Positions 1 to 63,781 of a stretch of DNA of 64,000 nucleotides are shown here, in pieces. The position numbers and the translations under genes were made by a program. The DNA is from a bacterium (GTDB lineage Bacteria > Patescibacteriota > JABMPQ01 > JBDRIV01). The DNA lies in the NCBI GenBank assembly GCA_043815505.1, contig JBDRIV010000002.1, positions 502,943 to 566,942 on the forward strand, read 5' to 3'. Each line of letters begins with the position of its first letter. Within the stretch, counting starts at the first letter, position 1. Under the pieces are notes generated by a model. The model made no database searches and was not told the origin of the DNA. It was given only the letters and a program-made list of their open reading frames with translations.

Positions 1-2
1 AA

Positions 3-37839: not shown

Positions 37840-37847
37840 ATTTTTAT

Positions 37848-39773
37848 TTAGAATTTAACAATAAATTCTTTATCCATTAGTAAATCAGTTGTAAAGGTTA
37901 TCGCTTTACCATCTGAGGTTACTTCCCCACCCTCACCAGAAAATGATTTTATATTTTTAGCGAATTTTAAAGTAATATTTAGAGGAGGATTTATTGTACC
38001 CGGCTGCTTTTGCACTTTTAATTTATATTCACCATCATCAACCATAGCTTTAATCCAATCTGGTAATTCATATTCATAAACTAGATCGCTTTCACTATTT
38101 GTTTCTGTAATAGAGAAGGTTCCATAAGCTGTTTTTCCCAATTCTTCAGTTACTTCATAAGATTCGTCTGTTTCATAATAAGATGGACTTACTTGGTTAC
38201 CAGAAATGTTTAAAAGATTTGACGTTTCCGGAACATATAGTCTATTCCAAGTGCGATAACGAGTTGATTTCCAAGTTAAACCGGCGTTGTTTTTGTAGTG
38301 AATTGTAGCTTTAGCAGTAGGTGTTGAATTGGTAAAATCGGCTTCATAAGCTAATGAACGATCCATAAAAGCATCAGTTTTTAGAGCCGCCATGTTGGCA
38401 TCAACTGACATTAGATAATCTCCGTTTTCACTCTGATCAACCGCACCACCCCAATTATTTTTGTCAATAAATGCTTGTTCTGTATCATTTGTCATATAAA
38501 TCAACATTTGCTTTTCGTGCATAGTATCAAAAACAACTTCTGAAAAATCCAACCACTTTTCTTTTGGTAGCGCAAAAATTGTTTCAATAATTTTGTCAGC
38601 CAGTGGACCAATAATATCTTTTCTTTGTTCCTTGTCTGTACCAGTTAATTTATATTCTCTTTCCACAATAAATTGTAATTGTTCAGTGAAATTTTCGTGA
38701 TTGAAAGTATAACCATCAACTGCCAACTCGCCAGTAAAAGCGAGAAAGTTTTCTATGGCAGTTGGTGTTAAAGCGATTACGCCATCAAATTCTGTTGTTC
38801 CACCCTCAATGTCATAGAAATATAAGGCCTTCTCACTGGAAGTTGGAAAATCAGGTGACCAGTTGGAATCTCTAAATGTCCAAGTGGACATATTAGGATT
38901 AGTTAGAACTCGTAGTTGCCAAGGCGGGGTTTCATTAATATCAGCATCTTTATCAAGATTATAAGTATCATCAGTTGTTAAATCCTTAATTTCGGCACTC
39001 GAAATATTTATTTCTCCATAACTACCGTTAAATCCTCCATCGGGTCGAAGTTCAGTATTATTTTTAAATAAAAACAAATAATGTCGGTCTTCCGGATAAC
39101 CGGCCATGGGCGGTAAAACTTGTGATAAATCAGTTACTATTGTCAAACCCTCCTTTAGAGCTGGTAACTGTTCGTTAATAATATCAAGCGCTTCTTTAAT
39201 TTGTGGCAATAAACCAAAAGTTGAAATGGAATTTATGGTTTCGTCGGCCAATTCAATTTTAGCTACTGCTCGAGTCAAATTGGGTGTGGATTCATAAAAT
39301 TCTTGCATTATTTTATATTTATCTGCTTCAGAAAAATCGGAAAAACTGGCATCTTCTTTTTCTTTAAATGGTTCATACAAATTTTCTACTACATCCACAA
39401 CTTCAATTAGAGCACCAGTTATTTCTTCAGCAGAAACCACCATTCCTTCAGCCGCTTTGATTTGGTTACGCACATAAGGAATAAATTTTAAATAAGATAT
39501 TTTTTGAATATCATTTTTGGTGGCAACAAATTTTTCATTAGCTGCTACCAATTTTTGACCAGCATTATCAAGATCTTGTTTGACCGCTAAGTCTTGCGCT
39601 TCCAACAAAAGATTTTTTCCTGCCAAAGCATTTTTGTAAGCCGATTTTCCAGGACTATAAGCAAAGGCAGAGCTGGCACCAATTAAAACAACCGATACTA
39701 CAATTATCCAAATTGTTATTTTTCGAGCTTTGGAAAATTTACTATTGGTAGGATTTATTTTTCTAGTTTTCAT
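37848..39773 (-). CDS. DUF4012 domain membrane-anchored protein (paralog 2)
   Basis: 641 aa. N-terminal TM. Core HYLFLFKNNTELRPDGGFNGSYGEINISSAEIKDL...FDGVIALTPTAIENFLAFTG parallels the 1536..3704 paralog. Confidence 0.7.
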   Translation of the reverse strand: MKTRKINPTNSKFSKARKITIWIIVVSVVLIGASSAFAYSPGKSAYKNALAGKNLLLEAQDLAVKQDLDNAGQKLVAANEKFVATKNDIQKISYLKFIPYVRNQIKAAEGMVVSAEEITGALIEVVDVVENLYEPFKEKEDASFSDFSEADKYKIMQEFYESTPNLTRAVAKIELADETINSISTFGLLPQIKEALDIINEQLPALKEGLTIVTDLSQVLPPMAGYPEDRHYLFLFKNNTELRPDGGFNGSYGEINISSAEIKDLTTDDTYNLDKDADINETPPWQLRVLTNPNMSTWTFRDSNWSPDFPTSSEKALYFYDIEGGTTEFDGVIALTPTAIENFLAFTGELAVDGYTFNHENFTEQLQFIVEREYKLTGTDKEQRKDIIGPLADKIIETIFALPKEKWLDFSEVVFDTMHEKQMLIYMTNDTEQAFIDKNNWGGAVDQSENGDYLMSVDANMAALKTDAFMDRSLAYEADFTNSTPTAKATIHYKNNAGLTWKSTRYRTWNRLYVPETSNLLNISGNQVSPSYYETDESYEVTEELGKTAYGTFSITETNSESDLVYEYELPDWIKAMVDDGEYKLKVQKQPGTINPPLNITLKFAKNIKSFSGEGGEVTSDGKAITFTTDLLMDKEFIVKF

Positions 39774-40671
39774 TGCTATTTAAATTATTGATTTTATTTA
39801 TTAAATCTCTTTCTTCTGCTCTTCTATATTTCCAAAAATATTTAATGGCACTTTTTATATGAATTCTAGTTAATTTATTGAACATCGCTAAAAATAGACT
39901 GCTTTCGGTTGCACTTTCCCGTTGATAGTAATGAACCATGGCAGCATCGGGATAATAATAGACTTTATAACCAGCTCGCCAGAAACGTCGACACCAATCC
40001 ACATCTTCCATATACATAAAAAATCTTTCATCCATTAAACCAACTTTCTTTATTGCTTCACGTTTAGCCATCATAGCGGAACCTAACATCCAAGCCACCG
40101 GACGCGCTTCTGCGTGATTCCAATTTGTTAAGGAAAACTTTTCTAAATTTTTCTTTCCCTTATTTAGATTACCCAACGAGGTACGACGATAAATTATAGT
40201 TTTAATAGTTGTAAAAAAGGAAAAGCATGAAAATTGAATTGTTCCTTTTGGATTAACAAGTTTGGGTGAAACAATTGCCACCTCTTCGTGTTGATCAAGA
40301 AAGGCGGCTAATTTGTTTATAGAATTTTCTAAAACGGTAATATCAGGATTTAAAATCAAAACATATTTACCACTGGAGTTTTTTATTCCTTGATTGACAG
40401 CTTTAGGAAATCCAACATTCTTTTTATTTTTTATTAACTTTACTTCTTTACTAAAATCATCCTCTATCTTTTCTTTTATCTCGTTACGATTTTTATTGTT
40501 AATAGAATTATCAACTACAATAATTTCAAAACTCTCATTCGGTTTGTTTGCTTCTTTGAGAATTGATTTTATACACTGCATTAAAATACCTGGATTTTCA
40601 TAACTAACCAGGATAATAGAAATGCTTTTTTTATCATCTTTCATTTCTGCCATTGCTTTAGTCGGAACCAA
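39763..40671 (-). CDS. Glycosyltransferase family 2 (GT-A)
   Basis: 302 aa. ISIILVSYENPGILMQCIKS..., DxD region, DVDWCRRFWRAGYKVYYYPDAAMVHYY (rhamnosyl/GT2_7-like C-terminus). Confidence 0.8.
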   Translation of the reverse strand: MVPTKAMAEMKDDKKSISIILVSYENPGILMQCIKSILKEANKPNESFEIIVVDNSINNKNRNEIKEKIEDDFSKEVKLIKNKKNVGFPKAVNQGIKNSSGKYVLILNPDITVLENSINKLAAFLDQHEEVAIVSPKLVNPKGTIQFSCFSFFTTIKTIIYRRTSLGNLNKGKKNLEKFSLTNWNHAEARPVAWMLGSAMMAKREAIKKVGLMDERFFMYMEDVDWCRRFWRAGYKVYYYPDAAMVHYYQRESATESSLFLAMFNKLTRIHIKSAIKYFWKYRRAEERDLINKINNLNSNEN

Positions 40672-40707
40672 TTACAAGTAGAGATTTATAGATATAAAAT
40701 ATCAATT

Positions 40708-42207
40708 TTAGCCTTCTTTGTCAAAATGCCCTGCTGGTTTAATTAGAGCCATGGCCGAAGCTATTATAATTAGACCAATTCCTATAGGGTGATTCAAATA
40801 AGGAGTAAAAAAATTAAGAATTAACAGACAAACTAGACTTAAGAAAATACCTGTATAGAGATAAGAATTTAACATTTTATGCCAAATATTTTTGGCAATA
40901 AACATAAGGTAAGCCAAATAAGCTAACAGTCCAATAAAACCAAATTCAACTATCATGTCTAAATACGTCCACTCCAAAGAATAAGTTTCAATTTGATCCG
41001 TACCGTTTAAATCTATATAACGCAAGTCGCTCGTTGTGTAAGCCGTTTTGGTGCCAAAACCTTGTCCGATTATGGGATTAACTTTTACATTTTCCATTAA
41101 CGGATTCCATAAACTCCATCTACTTCTGGCAGCTGCTTCGGAATCTAAATCTGATGTTCTGTCACTTAATAAATTGATAGCAGAAAAATCCTGTCCCCCA
41201 CCAAGAGGTAGTGGAAATTTAACAACAATGGTTAGAAATATAACAGCTATAATGGCCGATAAAGTTAACCAAGATAAATATTTTATTATTCTTTTTAGCT
41301 CAATTCTTTGTATCAGCAATAATATAATTGCTATTGCAATTGTTCCAACTAATCCCATCCAAAAACTTCTGGATAATCCAATAATAATTATAAAACTGTT
41401 CAGGGTGAGCATTATGTAAGCAGATGAAAAATATTTGGCTGACCTAATTTTTTCCTGTGGCCAAAGATAAGCCACTAAAATAAACCAAGCTACAATATTA
41501 AACAAATGTGATTGAAAAAATATACGGTAAAAACCATGACCGTAATTAGTTATCTCACCAACGCCAGTGTCTCTTATCCATTTATACAAACCCGCCATAG
41601 TTTCGGTGAAACCATGAGAAAAAGTATACAAAACTAAAGTAGTTTCAATGGCGACGGCGGTAGTGGCAAAAAGTAAATAACGCACTACTTTTTCCAGTTT
41701 TTTCTTGTTATTAATTTCCGCCACCGCCATTGGCACTAGTCCTAAAAACAAATAACCGTTAGCATCCAAAAAGATATCAATTAAAGGATTATTATTTATA
41801 TAAGCTATTAACACTCCCCAACCAATAGCTAAAATTGTCAGCCAATAATAGATTCCGATTTTTTTAGTAAATACAGGATTTTTAAAAATGGCTGAGTGGT
41901 TTTTTAGCAATGAAATTATTATCCAGGCTGCAAGGACAGTTAAAAATATTCCTAGGCGCAAGGAAATTTTTGTGCCGAGCAATTCTGCAAAAAACAAATA
42001 ACCCTTTCCCCCAATAATTAATTCAAATAAAACTATTAGCAATCCGTAAAGTGGTTTATATAAGGTAAAAATTGCTGTCAGAATTAAAACTATCCAAAAT
42101 ACCGTTTGATTTATCAGCAAATTTGAAATCCCCCACAACGAAAACGCTTCCACTAGAGCCCAAGCAATTAAAACATAAAAGAATTCTTTGCCAAAAATAT
42201 TTTTCAT
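40708..42207 (-). CDS. Polytopic membrane protein, O-antigen ligase/polymerase (Wzy_C)-like
   Basis: 499 aa with at least 10 TM helices and a large extracytoplasmic loop near the C-terminal third, the usual topology of O-antigen ligase/Wzy proteins. No unambiguous motif. Confidence 0.45.
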   Translation of the reverse strand: MKNIFGKEFFYVLIAWALVEAFSLWGISNLLINQTVFWIVLILTAIFTLYKPLYGLLIVLFELIIGGKGYLFFAELLGTKISLRLGIFLTVLAAWIIISLLKNHSAIFKNPVFTKKIGIYYWLTILAIGWGVLIAYINNNPLIDIFLDANGYLFLGLVPMAVAEINNKKKLEKVVRYLLFATTAVAIETTLVLYTFSHGFTETMAGLYKWIRDTGVGEITNYGHGFYRIFFQSHLFNIVAWFILVAYLWPQEKIRSAKYFSSAYIMLTLNSFIIIIGLSRSFWMGLVGTIAIAIILLLIQRIELKRIIKYLSWLTLSAIIAVIFLTIVVKFPLPLGGGQDFSAINLLSDRTSDLDSEAAARSRWSLWNPLMENVKVNPIIGQGFGTKTAYTTSDLRYIDLNGTDQIETYSLEWTYLDMIVEFGFIGLLAYLAYLMFIAKNIWHKMLNSYLYTGIFLSLVCLLILNFFTPYLNHPIGIGLIIIASAMALIKPAGHFDKEG

Positions 42208-43091
42208 TTATTTTTATCTCGTTTAATTGTTTTGAAAGTTTCTATTAAATTTACAACTAGGGCCAAGAATAAACTTAGGGGCGCCAAGAATAAAATAATA
42301 TTCTTTTCACTTCCTTGACCATGTTTTTTAAAATATTTGTATAAGCTATTCAAATAAATATATTGTTTTTTGACCGCGGGCAATTTAGCAAAGCTTTCTC
42401 CTTTTTGGTGCAGGATTGAGGTGCCAGCTAAATACATAATTTTTAAACCCTTGTCTTTAGCTCGTTTACAGAAATCTACTTCTTCAAACCAGAGAAAATA
42501 ATTTTCATCAAACTGACCAATTTTTTCAATGGCAGTTTGGGAAATTAAGAAAGCTGCTCCCATTACTTGATCAACACTATCAGAATAATCATAATCAAAA
42601 CTTTTGGCTAAATAATTTTTAATAGCTTTTAGTTTAAATAATTGATGAAGCTTTAATAAAATTAAACTTTGGGATTTGATATCAGGAAATCTTCTGACCG
42701 ATTCTTGAATACTGCCGTCGTAATTTAAAATCTTACATCCGGCCACGCCCAAATTTTTAATATCTTTGGCTTGATCAATAAAACTGCGCAAGGTATTTTC
42801 ATCAGGAATTAAAACATCAGGATTTAGAAGTAAAATATATTCACCTTTGGCTTTACCAATTCCCTGATTAACGGCCGTAGCAAAACCAAAATTAACTTTG
42901 TTATGAATGATATAACTTTGTGGCCAACGCTTTCCCACTTCCCAGATATCACAATCCATGGAATTATTATCGACAATAATAATTTCGAAATCAATGTTTT
43001 TAGTTTTTTCTACAATAGATTTTATACACTTATTCAATTCCCGACTGACATTCCAGTTAACAATAATTATGGAAAGTTCTTTATTCATCAA
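42204..43091 (-). CDS. Glycosyltransferase family 2 (GT-A)
   Basis: 295 aa. LSIIIVNWNVSRELNKCIKSI..., DNNSMD and LLLNPDV (DxD-type) motifs. C-terminal TM. Confidence 0.8.
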   Translation of the reverse strand: MMNKELSIIIVNWNVSRELNKCIKSIVEKTKNIDFEIIIVDNNSMDCDIWEVGKRWPQSYIIHNKVNFGFATAVNQGIGKAKGEYILLLNPDVLIPDENTLRSFIDQAKDIKNLGVAGCKILNYDGSIQESVRRFPDIKSQSLILLKLHQLFKLKAIKNYLAKSFDYDYSDSVDQVMGAAFLISQTAIEKIGQFDENYFLWFEEVDFCKRAKDKGLKIMYLAGTSILHQKGESFAKLPAVKKQYIYLNSLYKYFKKHGQGSEKNIILFLAPLSLFLALVVNLIETFKTIKRDKNK

Positions 43092-44226
43092 TTTTATCTA
43101 ATACTTCTTGTTTAAATTTGCTTAGAAGTGTTTCCCATTGTAATTCGTTTTCGGCGCGTAACTTTCCGTTTAAAGCTAATTTATTTCTTAATTCGTCGTT
43201 TTGCAGAATTTCAATAATTTTATCAGCGATTTCTGCTTCATTTTCCGGATCAACCAAAATTCCTGTCTTACCATCCAAAATTGCGTCAGCTGTTCCCCCA
43301 CCGCGTCCGCCAATTACCGCTTTGCCATAAATATTGGCTTCCACATAAACCATGCCAAATCCTTCCACATCATCTTTGATGGGACGCGATGCTAAAATTA
43401 ATATGTCGCAAGCAGAATAATATTTCGCTAAATCTTCATCACTCACTTTACCGGCAAAAATAACCTTGTCTTCTAAATTGTTTTCTTTTACTAATTTAAC
43501 TAAATTTTCTTTATTTTCACCATCTCCCACAATAACATATTTAGCTTGAGGAATTGTTTCTAAAACTTTTTTCAGGGCAGAAATTACTTTGTCATGTCCT
43601 TTTCTAGCCATCAACCTAGCTACTGTTAAAATTATTTTGTCATCCTTATTTAAATTCAGTTCACTTCTAGCTTCATCTTGGTTCCAGATTTTTTCTGGTT
43701 GCGATACTCCCGGCCACAGTTTATATATTTTTTCTTCTGGTACAGAAAATTTCATAATTTCCTTTTTGGTAAATTCACTTATGGTTATAATTTTCTCGGC
43801 TTGAGCAAAAACTTTTTTTGATAACCAACTTTTGTCTCGAGCGTGATGTAGCAGAGTTACGTCCATACCATAGGTAAAAATAATATAGGGAATTCCGAAA
43901 AGTTTCTTGGCAAAATAGGCGGCGGCTCCTAAGGGATGAATTTGACCAGCATAAATAATGTCGGGCTTCTTTATAATTACCAATTTTAAGGTATGCCAAA
44001 GCAAGGGAATAAATCTCGGTTTAGGCCATCTCTTACTATTCAGGAATTTCTTTCTTACTATTTTGTAAGGCTCTTGTTTATCAAACTCTTTGCAATTTTT
44101 GAACGGAGGTACTAAAATAGTCAGTTCTTCTTTATCTTTTAAGAAATGACTGAAATTGTAGAGAGAATTCTCTATACCACCCACTTGTGGTGGGTAGAAA
44201 AATGTTACTAATAGGCTTTTCTTCAT
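43081..44226 (-). CDS. Glycosyltransferase family 4 (GT-B)
   Basis: 381 aa. EGFGMVYVEANIYGKAVIGGRGGGTADAI is the EX7E motif. Confidence 0.8.
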   Translation of the reverse strand: MKKSLLVTFFYPPQVGGIENSLYNFSHFLKDKEELTILVPPFKNCKEFDKQEPYKIVRKKFLNSKRWPKPRFIPLLWHTLKLVIIKKPDIIYAGQIHPLGAAAYFAKKLFGIPYIIFTYGMDVTLLHHARDKSWLSKKVFAQAEKIITISEFTKKEIMKFSVPEEKIYKLWPGVSQPEKIWNQDEARSELNLNKDDKIILTVARLMARKGHDKVISALKKVLETIPQAKYVIVGDGENKENLVKLVKENNLEDKVIFAGKVSDEDLAKYYSACDILILASRPIKDDVEGFGMVYVEANIYGKAVIGGRGGGTADAILDGKTGILVDPENEAEIADKIIEILQNDELRNKLALNGKLRAENELQWETLLSKFKQEVLDKIDE

Positions 44227-44377
44227 TGGATGTTTTATAGAAATTCCTTTATATTATAGCAGAAATATACATTTTTGCTTTGATTGAGGCTTATTAACAG
44301 ACGTGTTATTATAAACTATACTCGGTAGTACAACAAGTTTTTGTACTATTGGGCCGATAAATAATATATTCATTAAG

Positions 44378-45853
44378 TTGTGCTACTGGGATATGTTTAA
44401 AGATATCAAAAAACTGGGTACAGATACAATTATTTACGCTGTTGGTTCAGGTTTACAAAGCCTGATCAATTTTTTGCTAATTCCCTTATACACCAGAAAT
44501 CTGGATACGGCCGATTATGGACGTTTGGAGCTTCTAAACACCGTGTTGGCAGTTTTAAATATGATTTTTTTAATCGGGATGGCTTCAGCAATAATTAAAG
44601 TCGCCAACCGCGATACAAAATCTGATGATCACAAAAAAATTGCCAGTGGTACTGCTTTCATTTTTGTTGTTCCAATTACAATTATTTTCACTGTTTTAGC
44701 TTGGTTTAAAGCGACCGAACTGGCAGAATTGGTTTTAGGAAATGCTGAACTTGTTAATTTGGTAAAACTGCTACTGCTGGCCAATGCAGTTATGATTCCT
44801 GAAACTATCTTCTTTTCCACTCTCAGAAGTCAGGATAGAGCCAAAATTTATTCTTCTCTGTGGATTGTTAGAGCGTTTGTTATCTTAGGTCTAAATAGTT
44901 ATTTCTTGATAGTCCAAAAAATGGGTATAGCCGGAATTTTAACCGGTAATTTAATTGCTCACTTTTTAATTCTGATCGTTTTCTTTTTATTTGTTAATAG
45001 AACTGTAAAATTTAAATGGGACAATTTTCTTTTTCGCAAACTTATAAAATTTGGTTTGCCAATAATTCCTGCGTCGCTAGCAATGTGGATTATGGATTTA
45101 TCCGATCGCTATTTTCTAAAACACTATTTTGATTTCACCGAAGTCGGGATTTATTCTCTGGGTTATAAACTTGGATTCTTTTTGTCTGTAGTTTTGGTTA
45201 CACCTTTTCAAATGGCTTGGCCCACAATCTCCTATCGCTTGGCCAATGAACCCGACAGCAAAAAAACTTTTGCCAGAATTTTTACTTACTTCTTTTTGTT
45301 GGCCTCAGCGGCCGCGCTGGGAATTTCTATTTTTGATGAAGCCTTAATTACCATTATGTCACCGGCCGAATATATTACGGCTGCCACCATTGTTCCACTA
45401 GTTGCTTTTTCTTATGTCTTTTATGGTTTGCATTTTGTGCTGGCCCAAGGAATTCATATTGTTGAAAAAACTAAATATTATCCGTGGGTAATAATTATTC
45501 CGGCAGTACTAAACTTTGGTTTAAACTATTTCTTTGTTCCTCGTTTTGGTATGATGGGAGCAGCCATTACCACCATCATCTCTTTTGCCATTGTAATATT
45601 TCTTACCTATCTTGTGGCCAATAAGTACTATCCTGTTAAACAGGAATGGCTGCGTTTGTTTAAAATCGTAATTGCCGTTATAATTCCACTAATAATCTCT
45701 TATTTTCTGCCCACCGCTCTGCTTTCAAACATCTTGACAGGAGTGTTAATATTTGGTCTATTTATATTATTACTGTTTGTATTTGGATTTTTCAATAAAG
45801 AAGAGTTTGCCCAACTAAAAGGTTTAAGATCAATGTTTAAAAAAGCCAAATGA
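44378..45853 (+). CDS. Oligosaccharide flippase (Wzx-like, MOP superfamily polysaccharide biosynthesis protein)
   Basis: 491 aa with 12-14 TM helices. N-terminus TDTIIYAVGSGLQSLINFLLIPLYTRNL is typical of Polysacc_synt/Wzx. The real start is possibly ATG 44393. Confidence 0.6.
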   Translation: MCYWDMFKDIKKLGTDTIIYAVGSGLQSLINFLLIPLYTRNLDTADYGRLELLNTVLAVLNMIFLIGMASAIIKVANRDTKSDDHKKIASGTAFIFVVPITIIFTVLAWFKATELAELVLGNAELVNLVKLLLLANAVMIPETIFFSTLRSQDRAKIYSSLWIVRAFVILGLNSYFLIVQKMGIAGILTGNLIAHFLILIVFFLFVNRTVKFKWDNFLFRKLIKFGLPIIPASLAMWIMDLSDRYFLKHYFDFTEVGIYSLGYKLGFFLSVVLVTPFQMAWPTISYRLANEPDSKKTFARIFTYFFLLASAAALGISIFDEALITIMSPAEYITAATIVPLVAFSYVFYGLHFVLAQGIHIVEKTKYYPWVIIIPAVLNFGLNYFFVPRFGMMGAAITTIISFAIVIFLTYLVANKYYPVKQEWLRLFKIVIAVIIPLIISYFLPTALLSNILTGVLIFGLFILLLFVFGFFNKEEFAQLKGLRSMFKKAK

Positions 45854-46794
45854 AATTAATTGTAACCATACCAGCTTATAACGAAGAGCAAACTATTGCT
45901 CAGGTCATAAAGGAAATTCCTAGAACCATAGAAGGAATTGCTGAAGTTTTAGTTTTGGTTTTAAATGATGGTTCAACCGACAGAACAGCAGAGATGGCCA
46001 AGGCGGCGGGAGCAGATTTTATATTTTCCCACAAAACCAATGAAGGCTTAGCCCGAACTTTTTCTGATGCCATAAATAAAGCTTTAGAGCACGGAGCCGA
46101 CATTATTGTAAATACCGACGCTGACAATCATTACGATCAGTCTCGTTTGGAAGAACTGGTACAACCCATACTTAATAAAAAAGCGGATATTGTGGTTTCA
46201 AATCGTGATATTAAAAATCTAAAGGAGATGCCTTTAGTAAATCGCCTAGGAAATGCTTTAGGAAGTTTCTTTGTAACAAGACTTACTGGTTTGCCTAAAG
46301 ATATTGATGTCTCCAGTGGTTATCGTGCTTATGCCAGGTCCGCCGCTATGAAAATAAATATAATTTCTACTCACACCTATGCACACGAATCCTTAATTCA
46401 AGCCAAGAATAATAATTTAATTATCAAATCTGTCACCATTCCCGCCCGCGCCGTCAAACGCAAATCTCGCCTTATCAGAAACGTCCCTTCTCACATCACC
46501 TCCTCACTTATTACTATCCTAAAAACCTTTGCTATTTATCGTCCTTTGCGGGTGATGTTGTTTTTAGGCAGTATTCTATTTTTCTTTGGATTAATTGGTT
46601 TTGGTCGCTTCTTATATTTTTATTATACCGAGGGTGGCGATGGTCACATTCAATCACTTATTTTATCGGCGGTTTTAGTTATCGTTGGTTTTCAGGTCAG
46701 TATTATGGGTCTGGTTTCGTCAGCTATTGGTTATAATCGCAAAATTTTAGAAGATATTTCCACCAAGCTTAAACAAAACAAGTACGATCGATGA
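45850..46794 (+). CDS. GT2 polyprenol-phosphate glycosyltransferase (DPM1/GtrB/ArnC-like) with C-terminal TM helices
   Basis: 314 aa. KLIVTIPAYNEEQTIAQVI...VLNDGSTDRTAEMA, DADNHYD (DxD), and two C-terminal TM helices as in GtrB/ArnC. Confidence 0.8.
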   Translation: MKLIVTIPAYNEEQTIAQVIKEIPRTIEGIAEVLVLVLNDGSTDRTAEMAKAAGADFIFSHKTNEGLARTFSDAINKALEHGADIIVNTDADNHYDQSRLEELVQPILNKKADIVVSNRDIKNLKEMPLVNRLGNALGSFFVTRLTGLPKDIDVSSGYRAYARSAAMKINIISTHTYAHESLIQAKNNNLIIKSVTIPARAVKRKSRLIRNVPSHITSSLITILKTFAIYRPLRVMLFLGSILFFFGLIGFGRFLYFYYTEGGDGHIQSLILSAVLVIVGFQVSIMGLVSSAIGYNRKILEDISTKLKQNKYDR

Positions 46795-47846
46795 AAGTTT
46801 TATTCATAGCCCGCACTTTTTCCGATGCACCTGGAGGTATGCAACAGGTGTCTCGTAACTTGCTTGAAAATTTACCGGTTGAAAAAATAAGTATTTTAAA
46901 TAAATCAGTTAGTCGTCTATCTTTAGTATGGTTTTTGCCATATTCTTTTTTTATGGGATTAATTTTTGGAGCTTCGGTGGATTTGATTTATTTAACAGAT
47001 GGTGTGATGGCGCCAGTGGGAAGACTACTGGGGAAAATTTATGGAAAACCGGTGGTGGCGACCATGCATGGTTTAGAATTAACTTACAATAACTGGTTCT
47101 ATAATTTATTTGTGAAAAGATCTTTTGCCAAGCTCACAAAAATAATTTGTGTTAGTAATTTTACCAAAAGCTTGTGTTTACAAAACGGCATAGCAGAAGA
47201 TAAATTAATAACTATTCCTTCTGGTTATTCAAAAATAAAATTGTACGAAAAAAATGAATGTCGTCAGAGATTAATTTCTGATAATATTGATTTAAAAGAT
47301 CACTTCACCTTAATAACAGTTGGTCGCTTGGTAAAACGCAAAGGTGTTTTATGGTTTCTGCAAAATGTTTTTCCTAAACTTGGGCCAGATATGAAATATT
47401 TAATTATTGGCGATGGTCCAGAACACGAAAGCATCCGCAAATTCATCTGGCAGGAAAAATTAAAAAATAGGGTTTATTTAATAAAAAATTGTAGTAATAC
47501 AAAAAGAGATATTTTATTGTCAGCCGCCGATCTATTTCTAATGCCAAATATTAAAGTAGCTGGTGACGTTGAGGGTTTTGGATTAGTAGCGCTAGAAGCC
47601 GCTTTAACTCTAAAACCAATTGTGGCATCAGCTGTTGACGGTTTAACATCAGCTGTCAGTGACCAAATGGGAATCTTGTGTCCAGAGAAAGACACCACCT
47701 GCTTTGTAAATAGTATTAATAAATTTCTAAACGAAGAATACTATGATCAGTTTGCTCGGTCAGCCTATAATTACGTTAAAACTACTTATACTTGGGAAAA
47801 AACTATCAATAACTATCTGAATTGTTTTAAGGAGGTAATTTTATGA
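46791..47846 (+). CDS. Glycosyltransferase family 4
   Basis: 351 aa. GDGPEHESIRKFI... and VEGFGLVALEAALTLKPIVASAVDGL. Confidence 0.75.
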   Translation: MKVLFIARTFSDAPGGMQQVSRNLLENLPVEKISILNKSVSRLSLVWFLPYSFFMGLIFGASVDLIYLTDGVMAPVGRLLGKIYGKPVVATMHGLELTYNNWFYNLFVKRSFAKLTKIICVSNFTKSLCLQNGIAEDKLITIPSGYSKIKLYEKNECRQRLISDNIDLKDHFTLITVGRLVKRKGVLWFLQNVFPKLGPDMKYLIIGDGPEHESIRKFIWQEKLKNRVYLIKNCSNTKRDILLSAADLFLMPNIKVAGDVEGFGLVALEAALTLKPIVASAVDGLTSAVSDQMGILCPEKDTTCFVNSINKFLNEEYYDQFARSAYNYVKTTYTWEKTINNYLNCFKEVIL

Positions 47847-48853
47847 AAATTGTATTTATCTATCCCTTTTTAGTTGATCCTTATGGTGGCGAAAGACATT
47901 TAGCAAAGCTCACCAGTACTTTGGCTGAAATGGGCCATAAAGTTTATGTTGTAACCTTGCGGACCGCTAAACCGGTCAATGACATGATGTCTAAAAAGGT
48001 GGTAATTAAATCTCTTGATTTAAAATTGTCTAAAAATTTGTTTCGCCGAACTTTCAAATCAACCACGGAGGCGAAGGCTTTAGCTAAAAGAGCAGCTCGT
48101 ATTAAAGCCAAATTTTATTGTGGTATGGGTTGGCAAACAACCATTGCTTTAAACAGTTTGAGTAAAGATTTTGGTATTAAAAAATCAAAATTAATTTATT
48201 ATTGTTTAGAACCGCCGCGCTTTCTGCATGATTTAAAAAAAGAACAGAATTCTTTGGTGCGTTTTGTTTCTCCCCTCCTGCGCAATAGAGATTACAAAAA
48301 TGTTAGAAATCTAAAAAATATTATTGCTAATAGTCAATGGACAAAAGATCAAATTAGAAATATTTACAATTTAGATGTCCCAGTTATTGTTCCTGGTATT
48401 GAAAAGAAAAGATTTGATAAATATGATAAAGAAAAGTTAAGGAAAGAACTTGATTTTCCCGAGCGTACTAAAGTTTATATTACCACCTCAAAACTTCATA
48501 AACGTAAAGGAATTGATAAGGCGATTTCATATTTTAGTAGAAACGCTAAAGGTTTAGAACATTTTTATATAATTGGTGATGGTCCAGAAAAGGCAAAATT
48601 AAAAAAATTGGCTAAGCATTCTCGCCTAGCAAATAATATTCATTTCTTAGGCCGACTAAAAGATCGACAAGTAGAAAAATATATTAAAGCTTCAGATATT
48701 TTCATTTTTACTGCCAAAAATGAACCTTATGGAATTGCTCCCCGCGAAGCGGTGTATGCTGGCCTTGAAGTAAAACCCAACAAGGTTTTGGGTCCAATTC
48801 TTTCGTGGGAAGGTTCCACTAAAAAGTTTGTAAAATATTTAGAGTCTTTATGA
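47843..48853 (+). CDS. Glycosyltransferase family 4-like (GT-B)
   Basis: 336 aa. N-terminal MKIVFIYPFLVDPYGGERHLAKLTSTLAEMGHKVYVVT is a GT4 N-domain. C-terminal EPYGIAPREA is a degenerate EX7E. Confidence 0.65.
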   Translation: MKIVFIYPFLVDPYGGERHLAKLTSTLAEMGHKVYVVTLRTAKPVNDMMSKKVVIKSLDLKLSKNLFRRTFKSTTEAKALAKRAARIKAKFYCGMGWQTTIALNSLSKDFGIKKSKLIYYCLEPPRFLHDLKKEQNSLVRFVSPLLRNRDYKNVRNLKNIIANSQWTKDQIRNIYNLDVPVIVPGIEKKRFDKYDKEKLRKELDFPERTKVYITTSKLHKRKGIDKAISYFSRNAKGLEHFYIIGDGPEKAKLKKLAKHSRLANNIHFLGRLKDRQVEKYIKASDIFIFTAKNEPYGIAPREAVYAGLEVKPNKVLGPILSWEGSTKKFVKYLESL

Positions 48854-49980
48854 AAATTGGTTACATTACAGAATCACTAAATGAACCGACTACTGGCATT
48901 GCTAGATATACGCTAGAGTTGCTTAAAGCTATGCAAGCAAATTCTGATAATGAATTTGTTTGTTTGAATTATAAAGAGTTGCCGGAATTAAAAAGTTTTG
49001 AACAACGAGTTATTCCCAATCCTTATAAGTGGCTTTTGAAAACGCATCTATATTACCCCCATATGATAAATAGTAAGAAGTTGTATGATTTAGACGTTAT
49101 TCACAATCCCGCGCAAATTCCGACCTATTTTACGCCTCCTAAGCCCTATGTAATTACCATTCACGATTTATCTCCCCTACTAACTCCAGAAGCTCATAAA
49201 TTTGGCAAACGTTTTATTTATAAAAAACTGTGGCCCAAAACTTTTGCCACTGCCAAAAAGATTATTGCAGTTTCTAAAACCACAGAGAAAACTTTGCACG
49301 AACTTTATCCTAAAACGAAAAACAAAACGGCAGTAGTTTATGAAGCTTTGCCGACTAAGCTGGCAAGTGCGGAACCAGATTCATCTCTAATGCAAAAGGT
49401 TACTTCTAAATATAATTTGCCCGAAAAATATATTTTATCAGTTGGTTCTCTGACTCCGCGGAAAAATTATGAGATGTTAATTCGTGCTTGTGCTAATTTG
49501 TGGCAACAAAATAAATTAGCAGATACCGAATTGATAATTGTTGGTCGCAAAGCTTGGCGCTATCAAAATATTTTTAAACTTATTAAAAGTTTAAATCTGG
49601 AGAAAAAAGTTAGAATTATTGAAACTGTTACTGATGAAGAACTACCAGTTTTTTATCAGCATTCCAGTTTGGCAGTTTTTCCTTCTCTTTTAGAAGGATT
49701 CGGTTTAATAGTCCTTGAAGCGATGAAATTTAGCGCACCAGTTATTGTCAGTAAAAATTCGTCTTTGTCTGAAGTTGCCGGCGACGCAGCCCTAAGTATT
49801 AATCCCTATTCTATTTCCGAATTAGAAGATGCTATTGTTCGCATTTTTGAAAATGAGACCTTACGCCATGATTTGATTGCTAAAGGTTTGACGCGAATTA
49901 ATGATTTCAGCTGGCAAAAAGCAGCCACTGAAACTATGGCAATTTATAAAAATGTCTATGAAAATTCTCCTAGTAAATGA
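48850..49980 (+). CDS. Glycosyltransferase family 4
   Basis: 376 aa. EGFGLIVLEAMKFSAPVIVSKNSSLSEVAGDAA. Confidence 0.8.
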   Translation: MKIGYITESLNEPTTGIARYTLELLKAMQANSDNEFVCLNYKELPELKSFEQRVIPNPYKWLLKTHLYYPHMINSKKLYDLDVIHNPAQIPTYFTPPKPYVITIHDLSPLLTPEAHKFGKRFIYKKLWPKTFATAKKIIAVSKTTEKTLHELYPKTKNKTAVVYEALPTKLASAEPDSSLMQKVTSKYNLPEKYILSVGSLTPRKNYEMLIRACANLWQQNKLADTELIIVGRKAWRYQNIFKLIKSLNLEKKVRIIETVTDEELPVFYQHSSLAVFPSLLEGFGLIVLEAMKFSAPVIVSKNSSLSEVAGDAALSINPYSISELEDAIVRIFENETLRHDLIAKGLTRINDFSWQKAATETMAIYKNVYENSPSK

Positions 49981-51166
49981 TCACGCTTCTGCTCATGGTG
50001 GAGCAGAAACCTATTTTTTTAATCTGGCTAAGTTATTAAAAGATAATGGTCATGAGGTTTTTGGTTTGTCTTTTTCTCCCTCACCGGCTCCAGAAAAAGC
50101 TTTTCCAAATTTAGAAATATTTACAGAAAAGAAAAATAAACTAGCCCGCGATTTAAGAGCTTTTTATTATCCAACCTTAACAAAATATTTTGGCAGTTTT
50201 TTAAACAGACATAATTTTGACGTTTTTCATTTTCAAAACATTAAAAAATATTCTCTTCCGTTGCTTAAAGTAAGGAAACATTTTCCTAATACAAAATTCA
50301 TACAAACAATTCATGATTCTTCATATATTTGTGAAACGGAATGGTTAGTTAAAGATATTGGAACTTTGTGTCCGGCTGGTATTGGAATTAAATGTTTGAA
50401 TAAAAAATGTAAATTGCGCCATCACACCTCTTCTCATTCCTGGTTACGATATAAATATAATGTTTTAGCACATAGTTATATTCGTCGTCGCGCTAAAAAC
50501 AAAATGGATTCCTATATTGTTCCTTCACAGGAATTAAAGCACAAATTGGCTGAACATAGTTTTAAAAATCTCCATCATTTGACCAATTTTATTGATTTAG
50601 ATAATTCAGAAATTGCGCCTCTGCCAGATAAACCAAATATTTTATTTGTGGGCAGAATGGTGAAATCTAAGGGTCCGCAAATCTTATTAAAGGCAATAAA
50701 AACTTTAGCAGAAAATAATTCTGATTTTACAGCCACTTTTGTGGGTTCTGGTCCTATGGAAAAAGAATTACAAGATTATGCCAATAAAAATAACCTTGAT
50801 AATAAAGTTGAGTTTGTTGGAAAAGTTAAGCATTCTGAACTGAACAATTTCTATAAAAATTGTAGTATGGTTGTAATTCCCTCACTGGTTTCAGAAAATC
50901 AACCGCTGGTGGCTTTGGAAGCAATGAATTATGGCCGAGCTATAATTGGTAGTCGCTTGGGAGGATTGCCAGATATAATTTCTGAAAATGAAAACGGCAT
51001 GCTATTTTCTTCCGGTAACGCATTAGAATTATCTCAAAAACTTGCAAACATTTTACCAGCCAGAGAAAAACTTACCACTTGGGGTAAAATTTCTAAAAAT
51101 ATAGTACAAAAAAAGTACTCAACACATGAGCACTTAAAATCTCTGCTAGAATTTTACAAATCCTAA
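49958..51166 (+). CDS. Glycosyltransferase family 4
   Basis: Start moved to ATG 49958 (MKILLVNDHASAHGGAETYF), the typical GT4 N-terminus; it overlaps the upstream gene by 23 nt. C-terminal ENQPLVALEAMNYGRAIIGSRLGGLPDII. Confidence 0.8.
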   Translation: MKILLVNDHASAHGGAETYFFNLAKLLKDNGHEVFGLSFSPSPAPEKAFPNLEIFTEKKNKLARDLRAFYYPTLTKYFGSFLNRHNFDVFHFQNIKKYSLPLLKVRKHFPNTKFIQTIHDSSYICETEWLVKDIGTLCPAGIGIKCLNKKCKLRHHTSSHSWLRYKYNVLAHSYIRRRAKNKMDSYIVPSQELKHKLAEHSFKNLHHLTNFIDLDNSEIAPLPDKPNILFVGRMVKSKGPQILLKAIKTLAENNSDFTATFVGSGPMEKELQDYANKNNLDNKVEFVGKVKHSELNNFYKNCSMVVIPSLVSENQPLVALEAMNYGRAIIGSRLGGLPDIISENENGMLFSSGNALELSQKLANILPAREKLTTWGKISKNIVQKKYSTHEHLKSLLEFYKS

Positions 51167-51203
51167 ATTGCTAATCAATTAAGGTTAGCAAGACCCTATT
51201 TTT

Positions 51204-54170
51204 TTATTCCAAATTTGCGCCAATATTATCTAGCAAAACTTCACAATTTTTTTCATCTGAATTCCAGGTGATTTCAATATGAGAAAGTTTTTCGCTTGGA
51301 GCTGGCAGTTGCAAATAATATGGTTGCCAATCTTTGTTAATAGAAAATTCTCCGAGTGTATTTTTCTCTTCTTCTGATCTTGAAACACTGCCTGCAAGCA
51401 ATATATCATCGCTACAGCTCGTTTTAGCGTCAAAATAGACGTTTATCGGGTTATTTGCCACCTCATCCTGATAAACCGATATAATCGCATTTTTTCTAAT
51501 ACTACGGGTGGTTTCGTGTGTTATGGGGTCTGTATACATATCTTTGAATCCTGATCTCATTAGAAGTTTAGGAAAAGCACTGTTATAAGGTTCATCTTTT
51601 CCGACTCGGTAAGCTACATAACCATCTTGATTGTAAATTGTGTCAGCGCGAAATGATCTCTGTGATGTGTATTCGTGAAAATCTGAAACACCCATAAAAT
51701 TGTCAGCATCAATTACCACATAACCAATATTAAATTTTGCCAAACTTTCTTCTGCCCAATCATCATAGTAAGCACGGTCATAAATATTATACATTTCGTG
51801 AGCAACGTTCCAATTTATTTCCGAGCGAATAATTGGTTGAAAAGATGCAAAATCGGAGAGGGTTGAATATTTTCTACCTAGAAATATTTCATTTAGACTT
51901 TCAATATTTTTTATTATTATATCGTCTCTTTCAATAATATTTGCATCTAATTCTCTATTCTCTGTTGGTGTTTGCAGAATGTTTTGATTAGCAAAAGAAT
52001 TAATATTATTATAGACTTTTGGTATTTCTACTTCATCAACTTCTTGATAATTCATTTTTATTACTTCTATGTCTTTATTTTTCATAGTTGCACCTTGACT
52101 GTTCGTAATTTCAATTTTTAATGAATGTATTCCCGGTTCAATATTATTTATTAGAAATGATTTTCCTAATATGCCCTCAAAAATTGTATATTCTTCAATA
52201 ATTTCATCATCAAAAATGATTCGCAAAAGACTATTTTCAGAATTTTCTCCGCTATCAAAAACCATATTTATTTGAGTATTTATATTATCGTCTTTGGTAT
52301 TTTCAATTATCCAATTCTCTTCACTTGATACAAATTTAGTAACTCTTACCAATTGCTTTAAATCATCATATCTTAACTTTTTCTTTTCAATAAAACCATT
52401 TTCATAAATTAATAAATTTGGTTGGTCTATATTTTTACTTATTTCTGTAGAAAAAGCCACCACCGATGCATCTCTATAAACTTCATCTAATTCCATTTCA
52501 TTTCTGAGAAATTCAATAGTTCTGTTAAATTCATATAATGAGAACTTTATTTTATCTCTTTCAATCGCTTTTCTATCAATGACAATGTATTTAATATTGT
52601 TTTTTTCAAAATAGTGATGAGCTGTGTTTTTATAATCATGTTCTAAATAACTAAATTGAGATTGTGGCAATTGGTATAGTAATTTATTTAGAATTGGATC
52701 GCTCTTTTCCTCTAAAAATGAATTTGGTTTTTGCCTAGCAAAATCCATTCCCCCAAAAACTTTTTTATTATGCAAAGAATTAAAGTATTTTGATTCTGTT
52801 GCGGCCACATAACTGGTTGAATCTGGTATATGAACAATGGCATAATCTTCGGTATCTTGTTGCATTTTTACATAAAATGGCGAGGGGACAGTAAAAGAAG
52901 TTCTGGGAACTGCCCAAAAATCTAAAATAAGCAAACCAGTAATGGCCACAAAAATAATCTTTTTTGTACTTTCCTTTTTAAATTTTAAACTAATTATTCC
53001 ATATCCAACTAACATAGAAAAAGCTAACATAGCAAAAGGAAACATTCTCGCTACTGATCTAATATTATCTACAAATGGTAAATACTCATATAATAAAATA
53101 TATGGCATGGGAATTATTGGTTTTACTAAACCATAAAAATGTAAAAATGGTCCTAGGGAAAGAATAAAAAATACTGAAAATATAGAAAACCATAATTTCA
53201 TTTTTTTATCATGCCATTTTTTGGAAATTCCAAATATGGCAATTATTAAGGCTATAATTCCCAAATAAGTTGTATTCTCTCCCCTGCCTCCGGTAAATTT
53301 GTCCCGAACATTATCATCAAAATATTCTCCCCAAAATGGATTTAAACTTGGTGGAGTAATAACTCCTAAGGTATCAGCTGAATAATATATTGCTTCATTT
53401 AAATTTGGTTGTAAATAGTTATTATCTGAGTAGTTGATTTTTAAGTAAGGTTTGTATTTATATACTAATATTGAAACTCCAATAAGCAAAACAACTATTA
53501 CATATGTCCAAAACTTTTTGTTTTGTAATATTTTCTTATCTGTAATTATTTTCCAAATTAAAATTACTGCTGTTAATATTATTGTCCAATAAGCGAAATG
53601 TAATTCACTATTAACTATAAATAAGAAAGTTATTAAGATAGCGAGAGCATATTTAAACTTTAGGCTATTTAGAAATAAAAGAAGAAACAAAACATAAAAA
53701 GGTATAAATTCAATATGCGTTGCTCCCCCAAATCCCATTGCGTAAGCAAAATGAACTGGCGCAAATCCATAAACCAAACCCGCAATAAAAGATGCTAATT
53801 TCTTTTTAGATAAATAGTAAAATAGTAAATAGGCGCCAATGGCTGCTAAGGGAAAAGAAATTAACCAAATTACATTAAATGCCAAAGTAACATTACCAGT
53901 TAACGCTTTAATAAAATATGAATAGGTTGTTAAACTAAAATATCTATCAGGATTTGCAAAGTAGGTAAATTTTTCAAAACCTGTTTTAGATTCAATGCGT
54001 TTTTCCAAAACATTTGTTCTAGCCAAAACCGAATATGCATCATCCTCTCCGGGAATTTCTGTAGTTATTTTTGTGACTAATGGATAAGCCATTACTATTA
54101 TCAAAATACAGTAGATGGCTACTGCTATGAAAAATCCTTTATTTTTTAGAACTTTTTTTAAATCAATCAC
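51204..54170 (-). CDS. Very large polytopic membrane protein with C-terminal extracytoplasmic domain (GT-C-fold / YfhO-like)
   Basis: 988 aa. About 13 N-terminal TM helices with an early extracytoplasmic loop (EIPGEDDAYSVLARTN) resembling the DxD-like loop of GT-C enzymes. About 550-aa soluble C-terminal domain. Family call is tentative. Confidence 0.4.
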   Translation of the reverse strand: MIDLKKVLKNKGFFIAVAIYCILIIVMAYPLVTKITTEIPGEDDAYSVLARTNVLEKRIESKTGFEKFTYFANPDRYFSLTTYSYFIKALTGNVTLAFNVIWLISFPLAAIGAYLLFYYLSKKKLASFIAGLVYGFAPVHFAYAMGFGGATHIEFIPFYVLFLLLFLNSLKFKYALAILITFLFIVNSELHFAYWTIILTAVILIWKIITDKKILQNKKFWTYVIVVLLIGVSILVYKYKPYLKINYSDNNYLQPNLNEAIYYSADTLGVITPPSLNPFWGEYFDDNVRDKFTGGRGENTTYLGIIALIIAIFGISKKWHDKKMKLWFSIFSVFFILSLGPFLHFYGLVKPIIPMPYILLYEYLPFVDNIRSVARMFPFAMLAFSMLVGYGIISLKFKKESTKKIIFVAITGLLILDFWAVPRTSFTVPSPFYVKMQQDTEDYAIVHIPDSTSYVAATESKYFNSLHNKKVFGGMDFARQKPNSFLEEKSDPILNKLLYQLPQSQFSYLEHDYKNTAHHYFEKNNIKYIVIDRKAIERDKIKFSLYEFNRTIEFLRNEMELDEVYRDASVVAFSTEISKNIDQPNLLIYENGFIEKKKLRYDDLKQLVRVTKFVSSEENWIIENTKDDNINTQINMVFDSGENSENSLLRIIFDDEIIEEYTIFEGILGKSFLINNIEPGIHSLKIEITNSQGATMKNKDIEVIKMNYQEVDEVEIPKVYNNINSFANQNILQTPTENRELDANIIERDDIIIKNIESLNEIFLGRKYSTLSDFASFQPIIRSEINWNVAHEMYNIYDRAYYDDWAEESLAKFNIGYVVIDADNFMGVSDFHEYTSQRSFRADTIYNQDGYVAYRVGKDEPYNSAFPKLLMRSGFKDMYTDPITHETTRSIRKNAIISVYQDEVANNPINVYFDAKTSCSDDILLAGSVSRSEEEKNTLGEFSINKDWQPYYLQLPAPSEKLSHIEITWNSDEKNCEVLLDNIGANLE

Positions 54171-54179
54171 ATAATTATT

Positions 54180-54857
54180 TTACTTTTTACAATTACCCCA
54201 AAAATTTGGATATAAATATAATGGTAATTTACTTGCTAATTTGAGAAAGAAAACTCCGATTGATCCAAATCTATCTCTGACTTTATTTTTATTGTGTTTC
54301 GTAATAATATTATACTTTTCAATAATAACATTATTAAACTTTGCTTCTTTTAAAAGTTTTTTTAAGCTGAAATAATTTTGTAAAGAACAATGCCATTTTT
54401 TATACTTTGTAAAACTTTTTGTCGCAATTATTGACCATGGTACATTTATAAATTTATTTGGTGTTTGAAATATAAAAATACCACCTGGCTTTAAAATTCT
54501 ATAAACTTGGTCTGATATAAATCTATTTATATTTGGAATATGTTCAATAACATCAAACATTAATATTACATCAAAGGAATTGTCATCAAAAGGAATTTCA
54601 TTTCCTTTATAATGCATTAGTCTTTCACTAATACTATTATATTTTATTTTACCTTCGGATATTGTTTTTATATTCTTGTCTATTCCATAAATATCATTAT
54701 AGCCTTTTCTGTATAAATTATATAATAAACTTCCATATCGGCAACCAATATCAATTATTTTATTTTTATTATGAATGTTTAAAGATTCAATATATTTTAA
54801 GGAAGAATAAATATTACCATGTTCATTGCGAAATAAATTTTTACTTCCTTTTTCCAT
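54180..54857 (-). CDS. Class I SAM-dependent methyltransferase
   Basis: Motif I IIDIGCRYGSLLYNL, post-I DIYGIDKN, motif II FDVILMFDVIEHIP, motif III LKPGGIFIFQTP. Start placed at the internal Met (MEKGSKNL) because the longer 54968 start adds a non-conserved hydrophobic leader. Confidence 0.75.
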   Translation of the reverse strand: MEKGSKNLFRNEHGNIYSSLKYIESLNIHNKNKIIDIGCRYGSLLYNLYRKGYNDIYGIDKNIKTISEGKIKYNSISERLMHYKGNEIPFDDNSFDVILMFDVIEHIPNINRFISDQVYRILKPGGIFIFQTPNKFINVPWSIIATKSFTKYKKWHCSLQNYFSLKKLLKEAKFNNVIIEKYNIITKHNKNKVRDRFGSIGVFFLKLASKLPLYLYPNFWGNCKK

Positions 54858-54968
54858 AGAAATTAAAACTTTAATTTTAAATAAGCCATAATAATGACTT
54901 CCTGTGCTTAAATTATAACAAAATATAACGATATAGACAATATTTCTTGATAGTTTATAATTAATCAT

Positions 54969-63780: not shown

Positions 63781-63781
63781 A

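Follow-up and report, generated by a model that had tools for sequence, protein, structure and literature searches.

The subject of this work is a stretch of 64,000 nucleotides (hereafter, the window) from a bacterium of the Candidate Phyla Radiation (CPR, or Patescibacteria; contig JBDRIV010000002.1 of assembly GCA_043815505.1, positions 502,943 to 566,942), which carries a glycan locus and two genes for proteins of the DUF4012 family (PF13196), to which no function has been assigned. On predicted models, the most conserved part of DUF4012 appears to match the fold of one family specifically, the LytR-Cps2A-Psr (LCP) transferases, although this match is geometrically loose. Tentatively, DUF4012 may be a membrane-anchored, ligase-like extracellular enzyme with an LCP fold that carries out the last step on a lipid-linked glycan.

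Both DUF4012 proteins have a basic N-terminus, one hydrophobic helix (residues 19-37 in the 37848-39773 protein, paralog 2; residues 58-83 in the 1536-3704 protein, paralog 1) and a soluble remainder, and both are predicted to be type-II membrane proteins with their bulk outside the membrane. They share 26% identity across 587 amino acids (aa). The AlphaFold model of full-length paralog 2, based on an alignment of 51 sequences, has a pLDDT of 92 and a pTM of 0.86; it consists of a cytoplasmic tail, the transmembrane helix, a helical stalk of ~180 residues (~40-223), an alpha/beta core (~225-450) and a C-terminal beta-sandwich (~450-641). Every homolog collected carries PF13196 (gathering cut-off, 28 bits). 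In an alignment of both CPR paralog types with copies from Actinomycetota and Bacillota, G225, E241, R243, G246, G247, G250, G331, G348 and K465 are invariant and Y232, N304, P310, N361, K385, N460 and D467 are nearly so, while R301 and D302 are lost in the actinobacterial copies. The most conserved region is the alpha/beta core and not the beta-sandwich. Polar residues that are invariant across three phyla would fit an enzyme or a ligand pocket.

A Foldseek search of the PDB with the full model gave weak beta-sandwich matches (the N-terminal domain of M1 aminopeptidase N, Ost1/ribophorin I and ITIH1) and, lower in the list, 3owq and 3nro, with target-normalised TM-scores of 0.41-0.44. When the core was modelled separately (residues 205-500, pLDDT 76), the top 20 matches were all LCP structures, with E values of 5e-4 to 2e-2, probabilities of 0.87-1.0 and 203-299 aligned columns; the 21st match had an E value of 0.3 and a probability of 0.13. 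These structures include Cps2A with polyprenyl phosphates, TagT with a lipid-linked teichoic acid precursor, TagU, TagV, LytR and BrpA, together with the structural-genomics entries 3pe5, 3owq, 3nro, 3qfi and 3okz; the unnamed entries were assigned to LCP by a sequence search with TagT. The secondary-structure order of the core is presumably that of TagT. An initial annotation of the window, made from the sequence alone, had proposed a fold search against the Wzz, LCP and LytR families; the outcome favoured the LCP (LytR) transferases and not Wzz, and no plain adhesin fold was among the matches.

LCP enzymes are built from a transmembrane anchor, an optional accessory domain, an extracellular core and, in some cases, a C-terminal domain, and they were discovered as partners of MreB (PMC7831098). 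DUF4012 has the same parts in the same order as TagT/U/V, Cps2A and LcpA, its gene lies inside glycopolymer clusters, just as LCP genes are often part of the cluster that they serve, and it has links with MreB and with genes of peptidoglycan synthesis. It differs from LCP proteins in its long helical stalk, in a beta-sandwich of ~190 residues that is absent from LCP, in its own set of conserved residues, in the lack of detectable sequence or profile similarity and in TM-scores that are all below 0.5.

The genomic context points in the same direction. The closest homologs of the two window copies come from uncultured groundwater bacteria, in metagenome-assembled genomes of the Kerfeldbacteria and Parcubacteria types. 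A scan for CPR orthologs of paralog 2, limited to one genome per species, gave 80 loci, in which open reading frames (ORFs) were called and labelled by BLAST against the window proteins. The link with glycan genes is seen in 76 CPR loci, where the conserved string is GT2, Wzy_C, GT2, GT2, DUF4012, a gene of ~335 aa and a glycosyltransferase (GT) of family GT4 like that at 419-1552. Of 73 loci, 42 have an ortholog of the GT2 at 39763-40671 at position -1; an ortholog of the Wzy_C protein (40708-42207) is present in 24 loci, and in 50 a homolog of the 419-1552 GT4 is found two genes away from DUF4012. According to Pfam, the 148 proteins encoded closest to DUF4012 (four per locus, 37 loci) comprise 30 GT2, 20 GT4 and 6 Wzy_C proteins (56 of 148), compared with 7 GT4 and at most 2 GT2 (~9 of 148) among genes at least seven positions away in the same loci. 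The ~335-aa gene directly after DUF4012 proved to be MreB in 27 of the 37.

One of these relatives (locus L005) has the order Wzx, GT4, GT4, GT2, Wzy_C, GT2, GT2, DUF4012, MreB, GT4, housekeeping genes, and then a second MreB with MreC. The first MreB paralog (L005:11912-12925) matches Pfam MreB_Mbl with 446 bits; the second, with MreC, lies ~7 kb further on (L005:19192-21066). Such genomes therefore keep one copy of MreB inside the glycan operon. An S41 peptidase gene follows DUF4012 by 8 nt in the window, as it does in its nearest relatives (the four loci L001, L002, L021 and L063), whereas more distant relatives have MreB there.

A second conserved module surrounds paralog 1, with the order Bac_transf, GT4, (Wzz-like), GT4, GT4, DUF4012, MurJ, and it is polymerase-free. 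Among the five loci examined for orthologs of this paralog, two or three GT4 genes were directly upstream in all five, a Bac_transf priming transferase preceded the GT4 genes in three, MurJ directly followed DUF4012 in three, and a small protein with a weak Wzz match was found in one. MreB after DUF4012 in most relatives of paralog 2, and MurJ overlapping paralog 1, fit the LCP pattern.

Outside CPR, tblastn found 11 copies of DUF4012 on plasmids. The five distinct contexts inspected in Rhodococcus and Streptomyces plasmids were all polysaccharide loci; in two of them, DUF4012 directly follows a priming sugar transferase, and others contain a tyrosine autokinase, a low-molecular-weight phosphatase, a gene of the O-antigen-ligase family and a TagA-like GT. 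DUF4012 thus adjoins a priming transferase, a Wzz/tyrosine kinase and a phosphatase in actinobacterial clusters; in the streptococcal (Firmicutes) cps/eps loci, it is the LCP protein CpsA that lies beside a priming transferase, Wzz/kinase and phosphatase. In the cluster for exopolysaccharide (EPS) and capsular polysaccharide of Bifidobacterium longum 105-A, the DUF4012 gene BL105A_0406 lies between the priming transferase and wzz (PMC5412050). Meheust et al. 2019 described DUF4012 as a CPR-enriched and probably envelope-related family (fam000574 / 3.6k.fam04012), with 2114 proteins in 1300 CPR genomes versus 8 other bacterial genomes (PMC6744442). The association of DUF4012 with glycan genes is thus real and already in the literature. 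These two reports concern the same Pfam family in a similar setting of priming transferase, Wzz and GT genes, and an envelope role was proposed in them; unlike the present analysis, they contain no hypothesis about fold, mechanism or residues, and the window adds two diverged paralogs in two conserved modules. The general idea of the initial annotation, that DUF4012 serves in envelope-polymer assembly, agrees with the GT-rich neighbourhoods found in CPR, at the paralog-1 loci and on the actinobacterial plasmids. Enrichment near GT genes was also the outcome of the neighbourhood comparison that it had suggested, where a lack of enrichment would have spoken against the idea.

The locus from 37.8 to 64 kb has the combination that defines the Wzx/Wzy pathway, namely a flippase of the multidrug/oligosaccharidyl-lipid/polysaccharide (MOP) type (44378), a Wzy_C protein (40708) and multiple GT genes at one place. 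It resembles the Wzx/Wzy loci for Gram-positive capsules, EPS and O-antigens in these genes, in its tailoring methyl-, sulfo- and fucosyl-transferases and in its low-GC variable part. It differs from cps/eps loci by having, within the window, no priming phosphoglycosyltransferase, no tyrosine kinase/phosphatase module and no canonical LCP, and by having two large unclassified polytopic membrane proteins. Starting from the observed gene content, synteny, topology and fold resemblance, a pathway for a cell-envelope heteropolysaccharide may be proposed: cytoplasmic GT2 and GT4 enzymes would make a repeat unit on polyprenyl-diphosphate, Wzx would flip it across the membrane, and the Wzy_C protein would polymerise it, with decoration by the GtrB-like GT2 (45850), methyltransferases, the sulfotransferase and the fucosyltransferase. 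DUF4012 is the sole extracytoplasmic protein without an assigned step in both conserved CPR modules, and the step left unfilled is the last. Its core would bind the lipid-diphosphate-linked glycan outside the cell and, most likely, would transfer the finished glycan from its lipid carrier to the peptidoglycan wall or to another surface acceptor; E241, R243, N304, K385, K465 and D467 would form a catalytic set that replaces the LCP arginines. Paralog 1 would have the same role in its shorter, polymerase-free module of a priming transferase, three GT4 enzymes, DUF4012 and MurJ.

Several observations weigh against an LCP-like ligase. The TM-scores of the LCP matches are 0.31-0.45 and their root-mean-square deviations 6-14 A, a likeness read from the Foldseek scores of predicted models. 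In Pfam, neither DUF4012 protein matches the LCP family PF03816. Comparisons of DUF4012 with LCP profiles by hhalign in four set-ups were never significant (probability 0.1-1.3%, P 0.04-0.46); the largest of these opposed 101 non-redundant DUF4012 sequences to 157 LCP sequences, of which 148 were taken from the 38,185 LCP representatives counted across the whole library. The LCP signature residues (G-x-D-x-R, R-S-D, P-R-D and R-x-R) are not conserved in DUF4012, which has one invariant Arg; should DUF4012 be an enzyme, it would have an active site of its own. Canonical LCP proteins occur in 1266 CPR genomes versus 1300 for DUF4012, so the two families, which co-occur in CPR genomes, must share the tasks between them and do not stand in for one another. 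The GT share of ~34% near DUF4012 versus 6% far from it (Fisher p ~1e-9) overstates independence, since the 80 CPR loci are orthologous and represent conserved synteny, not 37 independent events. No GT gene adjoins the DUF4012 copy of Eubacterium eligens. Finally, the Wzy_C domain is common to WaaL and PglL, and ligation could be the work of the Wzy_C protein itself.

In two independent set-ups, the best local hhalign alignment (P 0.04 and 0.11, not significant) fell on the same beta4-alpha-beta5 element, 'vDGVIAxTPxxxxxLLxxTGPI' in DUF4012 and 'vDYxVxxNFxAFxxIVDxLGGV' in LCP, which in both families is the strand-helix-strand after the first helix of the core; this overlap can be taken as a hint only. 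A search of the PDB sequences with the DUF4012 alignment profile returned coiled-coil noise on the helical stalk and nothing else. The R-S-D motif, sought with a regular expression, occurred in none of the 1371 ORFs of the 80 loci and in none of the window proteins. In favour of the ligase reading, no canonical LCP gene was seen in any of ~90 loci. A simple replacement of LCP by DUF4012 in CPR was considered and rejected, as LCP is also common there.

Another possibility is that DUF4012 is an extracytoplasmic enzyme acting on the lipid-linked or finished glycan without ligating it, for example as a pyrophosphatase or releasing enzyme that yields free exopolysaccharide, or as a hydrolase or lyase. 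The fold, topology, conservation and context bear on this possibility just as they do on ligation, and the present data do not separate the two. LCP enzymes have pyrophosphatase activity on the lipid carrier (PMC7831098); the use of Glu, Lys and Asp instead of Arg could mean a different reaction; and B. longum 105-A is reported to make both capsular and released EPS. The ties to MreB and MurJ, however, suit attachment to the wall more than release, and a non-ligating enzyme is considered rather unlikely.

DUF4012 could also be a non-catalytic assembly factor, that is, a chain-length regulator, a co-polymerase or a scaffold for Wzy, Wzx and the wall machinery, with ligation left to the Wzy_C protein or to an LCP elsewhere. 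Its stalk after the transmembrane helix loosely recalls the periplasmic helices of polysaccharide co-polymerases (PCP) such as Wzz, which share with it a membrane anchor, an extended helical region outside the cytoplasm and a gene position beside Wzy; its position beside Wzy_C is conserved; most CPR genomes have canonical LCP genes; and the loss of the LCP catalytic arginines is what a pseudo-enzyme would show. The initial annotation had leaned towards this type of role, as a chain-length regulator or export scaffold. However, neither DUF4012 protein has a Wzz match in Pfam, each has one transmembrane helix and not two, no PCP structure was among the Foldseek matches of the full model or the core, where LCP structures were found instead, and a separate Wzz gene often lies alongside (in B. 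longum and, with a weak Wzz match, in one CPR relative). The absence of a polymerase from the paralog-1 module leaves nothing to regulate and argues against a chain-length role there, and the invariance of E241, R243 and K465 across three phyla argues for a pocket with chemistry. The identification of DUF4012 as Wzz was rejected on the Pfam, helix-count and fold-search results, and an assembly factor of any type has, in our estimate, a low probability.

It is very improbable that DUF4012 is an adhesin or other structural protein of the surface whose gene simply happens to lie among glycan genes, an idea to which the weak generic matches of the C-terminal beta-sandwich lend something. This reading was rejected, because conservation peaks in an alpha/beta core with invariant polar residues, the genes are tightly embedded in operons (overlaps of 8-17 nt with GT and MurJ genes), the context is conserved in three phyla, and neither repeats nor an adhesin fold were found.

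If DUF4012 is indeed an LCP-like ligase, it would explain how capsule and EPS clusters that lack LCP finish their pathway, and it would bear on how ultrasmall episymbiotic bacteria build the surface with which they contact their hosts. The family is among those that set CPR apart, and it is also present in polysaccharide loci of Bifidobacterium, Rhodococcus and Streptomyces. An LCP-like fold gives rise to a concrete biochemical hypothesis, namely that DUF4012 handles lipid-diphosphate-linked glycans on the outside of the cell. The residues to mutate can be named, and B. longum 105-A, Rhodococcus and Streptomyces are among the tractable organisms in which a test is feasible. A broader and more doubtful proposal is that DUF4012 is a divergent, unrecognised branch of the LCP fold, which would supply the terminal ligase of LCP-less actinobacterial Wzy clusters, including Bifidobacterium capsules, and the two CPR paralogs, which would couple the step that fastens glycopolymers to the wall with the peptidoglycan synthesis linked to MreB and MurJ. 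What is added here is the LCP-like fold, the family-wide residue set, the two diverged CPR paralog types in two modules and the linkage to MreB and MurJ; a literature search, which did not cover Pfam clan or ECOD assignments, found no paper stating any of these, and the literature on PF13196 / IPR025101 yielded nothing useful.

The gene map of the window (Table 1) was obtained by Pfam annotation of long ORFs (at least 100 aa).

Table 1. Glycan-related genes and their neighbours in the window
Feature	Coordinates	Strand	Basis and remarks
Partial GT4, C-terminal part, runs off window start	1..384	+	Frame-0 translation with GT4 motif YEGFGFPPIEAL; 2-3 GT4 upstream of this DUF4012 type in relatives
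GT4	419..1552	+	Pfam Glycos_transf_1, 135 bits; 17-nt overlap with DUF4012
DUF4012 paralog 1, 722 aa, single N-terminal transmembrane helix	1536..3704	+	Pfam PF13196, 93 bits (92.9)
MurJ-type lipid II / MOP flippase	3697..5253	+	Pfam MurJ, 322 bits; overlaps DUF4012 by 8 nt
GT26, WecG/TagA/TarA-like, apart from main locus	28660..29508	+	Pfam Glyco_tran_WecG, 168 bits; NCBIfam TIGR00696 above cut-off; TarA, 139 bits
S41 C-terminal processing peptidase, CtpB-like, with PDZ	36616..37839	-	Pfam; 8 nt downstream of DUF4012
DUF4012 paralog 2, 641 aa	37848..39773	-	Pfam PF13196, 85 bits (85.3)
GT2	39763..40671	-	Pfam; overlaps DUF4012 by 11 nt
Wzy_C-domain polytopic membrane protein, polymerase or ligase type	40708..42207	-	Pfam Wzy_C, 48 bits
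GT2	42204..43091	-	Pfam; conserved synteny
GT4, first gene of minus-strand operon	43081..44226	-	Pfam, 158 bits
Wzx-type (MOP) flippase, first gene of plus-strand operon	44378..45853	+	Pfam Polysacc_synt; NCBIfam HfsF / Wzx-like matches below cut-off
GT2, GtrB/DPM1-like (resembles polyprenyl-phosphate sugar synthases)	45850..46794	+	Pfam; two C-terminal transmembrane helices
GT4	46791..47846	+	Pfam
GT4	47843..48853	+	Pfam
GT4	48850..49980	+	Pfam
GT4	49901..51166	+	Pfam; ORF overlaps upstream gene by 80 nt
Polytopic membrane protein, 988 aa, ~10 transmembrane helices within first 430 aa, large soluble C-terminal part	51204..54170	-	Hydropathy
S-adenosylmethionine (SAM)-dependent methyltransferase	54180..54968	-	Pfam
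Polytopic membrane protein, 761 aa, ~13-15 transmembrane helices	54969..57254	+	Hydropathy
GT4	57251..58525	-	Pfam
Methyltransferase (SAM)	58525..59256	-	Pfam
Weak GT-A-like protein	59246..60160	-	GNT-I / GT25 matches below cut-off
GT2	60150..61079	-	Pfam
GT2	61072..61914	-	Pfam
Methyltransf_24 methyltransferase	61911..62822	-	Pfam
Sulfotransferase	62857..63780	-	Pfam
GT11-type fucosyltransferase, C-terminal fragment, runs off window end	63782..64000	-	Translation with IIANSSFSWWGAWL / ANSSFSWWGAWL motif

The main glycan locus runs from 37848 to the end of the window (~26 kb), and 21 of its 22 consecutive genes encode glycan-related or polytopic membrane proteins, compared with one GT among the ~30 genes between 5 and 36 kb. 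The locus itself is ordinary. A minus-strand operon (36616-44226) reads, from its first gene, GT4, GT2, Wzy_C, GT2, DUF4012 and S41 peptidase, and a divergent plus-strand operon (from 44378) has Wzx, GT2 and four GT4 genes that reach to 51166. The initial annotation gave the correct size of ~26 kb, while the limits it assigned, 37848-54170, take in 16 kb of it. Nor is the locus bracketed by the DUF4012 paralogs, as had been stated: one forms its edge, and the other belongs to the GT4-DUF4012-MurJ module at a distance of 34 kb, with housekeeping genes (LepA, a release factor, FtsEX, PriA, GluRS and CTP synthase) in between.

The gene content had been largely recognised from the start. Pfam recovers all seven GT4 that had been counted (419, 43081, 46791, 47843, 48850, 49901 and 57251), to which the partial one at 1-384 is added, and the five GT2 (39763, 42204, 45850, 60150 and 61072), with a further weak GT-A-like protein (59246); 11 of these GT genes lie between 39.7 and 62 kb. 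GT26, Wzx, Wzy_C and the two DUF4012 were likewise found by Pfam. GT26 enzymes of the TagA/TarA type build the linkage unit of teichoic acids. The GT11 fragment proposed at the end of the window is real; its assignment is based on this motif and not on a hidden Markov model. The GtrB-like label of the GT2 at 45850 is reasonable, given its two C-terminal transmembrane helices and its best NCBIfam matches (AglJ, Dol-P-hexose transferase, PpgS and ArnC, all below cut-off). The juxtaposition of each DUF4012 with a GT gene, and the 4-nt ATGA overlaps, were also correctly noted: the latter are present at six same-strand junctions, and five further junctions overlap by 8-11 nt. The GT4 at 49901-51166 probably starts downstream of 49901.

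No priming polyprenyl-phosphate phosphoglycosyltransferase (Bac_transf or the MraY-type Glycos_transf_4) was matched among the scanned window ORFs. By analogy with the Bac_transf upstream of paralog-1 orthologs, it would sit before the start of the window.

The two large membrane proteins (51204-54170 and 54969-57254) have no match in Pfam (E<=10), NCBIfam or the PDB sequences, and no GT-C family (PMT_2, ArnT, STT3, YfhO and others) was found by sequence for either; the description of them as GT-C-like thus has no support in these three collections. Both lie near the GtrB-like polyprenyl-phosphate GT, which is the place expected for a GT-C enzyme. The methyltransferase gene (54180-54968, minus strand) and that of the second membrane protein (54969-57254, plus strand) diverge from directly adjoining bases, and the latter converges on the GT4 gene at 57251-58525 with a 4-nt overlap; one of the start calls, or both, may be wrong.

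The GC content is 32-36% across most of the window and 24-28% from ~52 kb to its end. This low-GC stretch (52000-64000) takes in both unclassified membrane proteins as well as the distal genes for methyl-, sulfo- and fucosyl-transferases, and it resembles the variable or acquired blocks of O-antigen loci. A scan of the locus for promoters and terminators gave 93 promoter-like sites versus 85 +/- 10 expected, from which nothing is claimed.

A search of the whole window with Rfam found two tRNAs and nothing else. One of them is a tRNA-Gln (12357-12431); after it comes a 92-aa ORF (12559-12837) that looks GIY-YIG-like by eye. The ~2.7 kb after this ORF contain no convincing ORF and no Rfam match, and the stretch 12357-15600 may be what is left of a decayed mobile element, or may hold an RNA that is not recognised. 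At 21563-22951, a YkuD L,D-transpeptidase is fused to FG-GAP repeats. The same architecture occurs in a distant CPR relative (L090:11141-12580), 2 kb from a DUF4012 paralog and beside genes for a CLIPPER-domain protein and a sortase.

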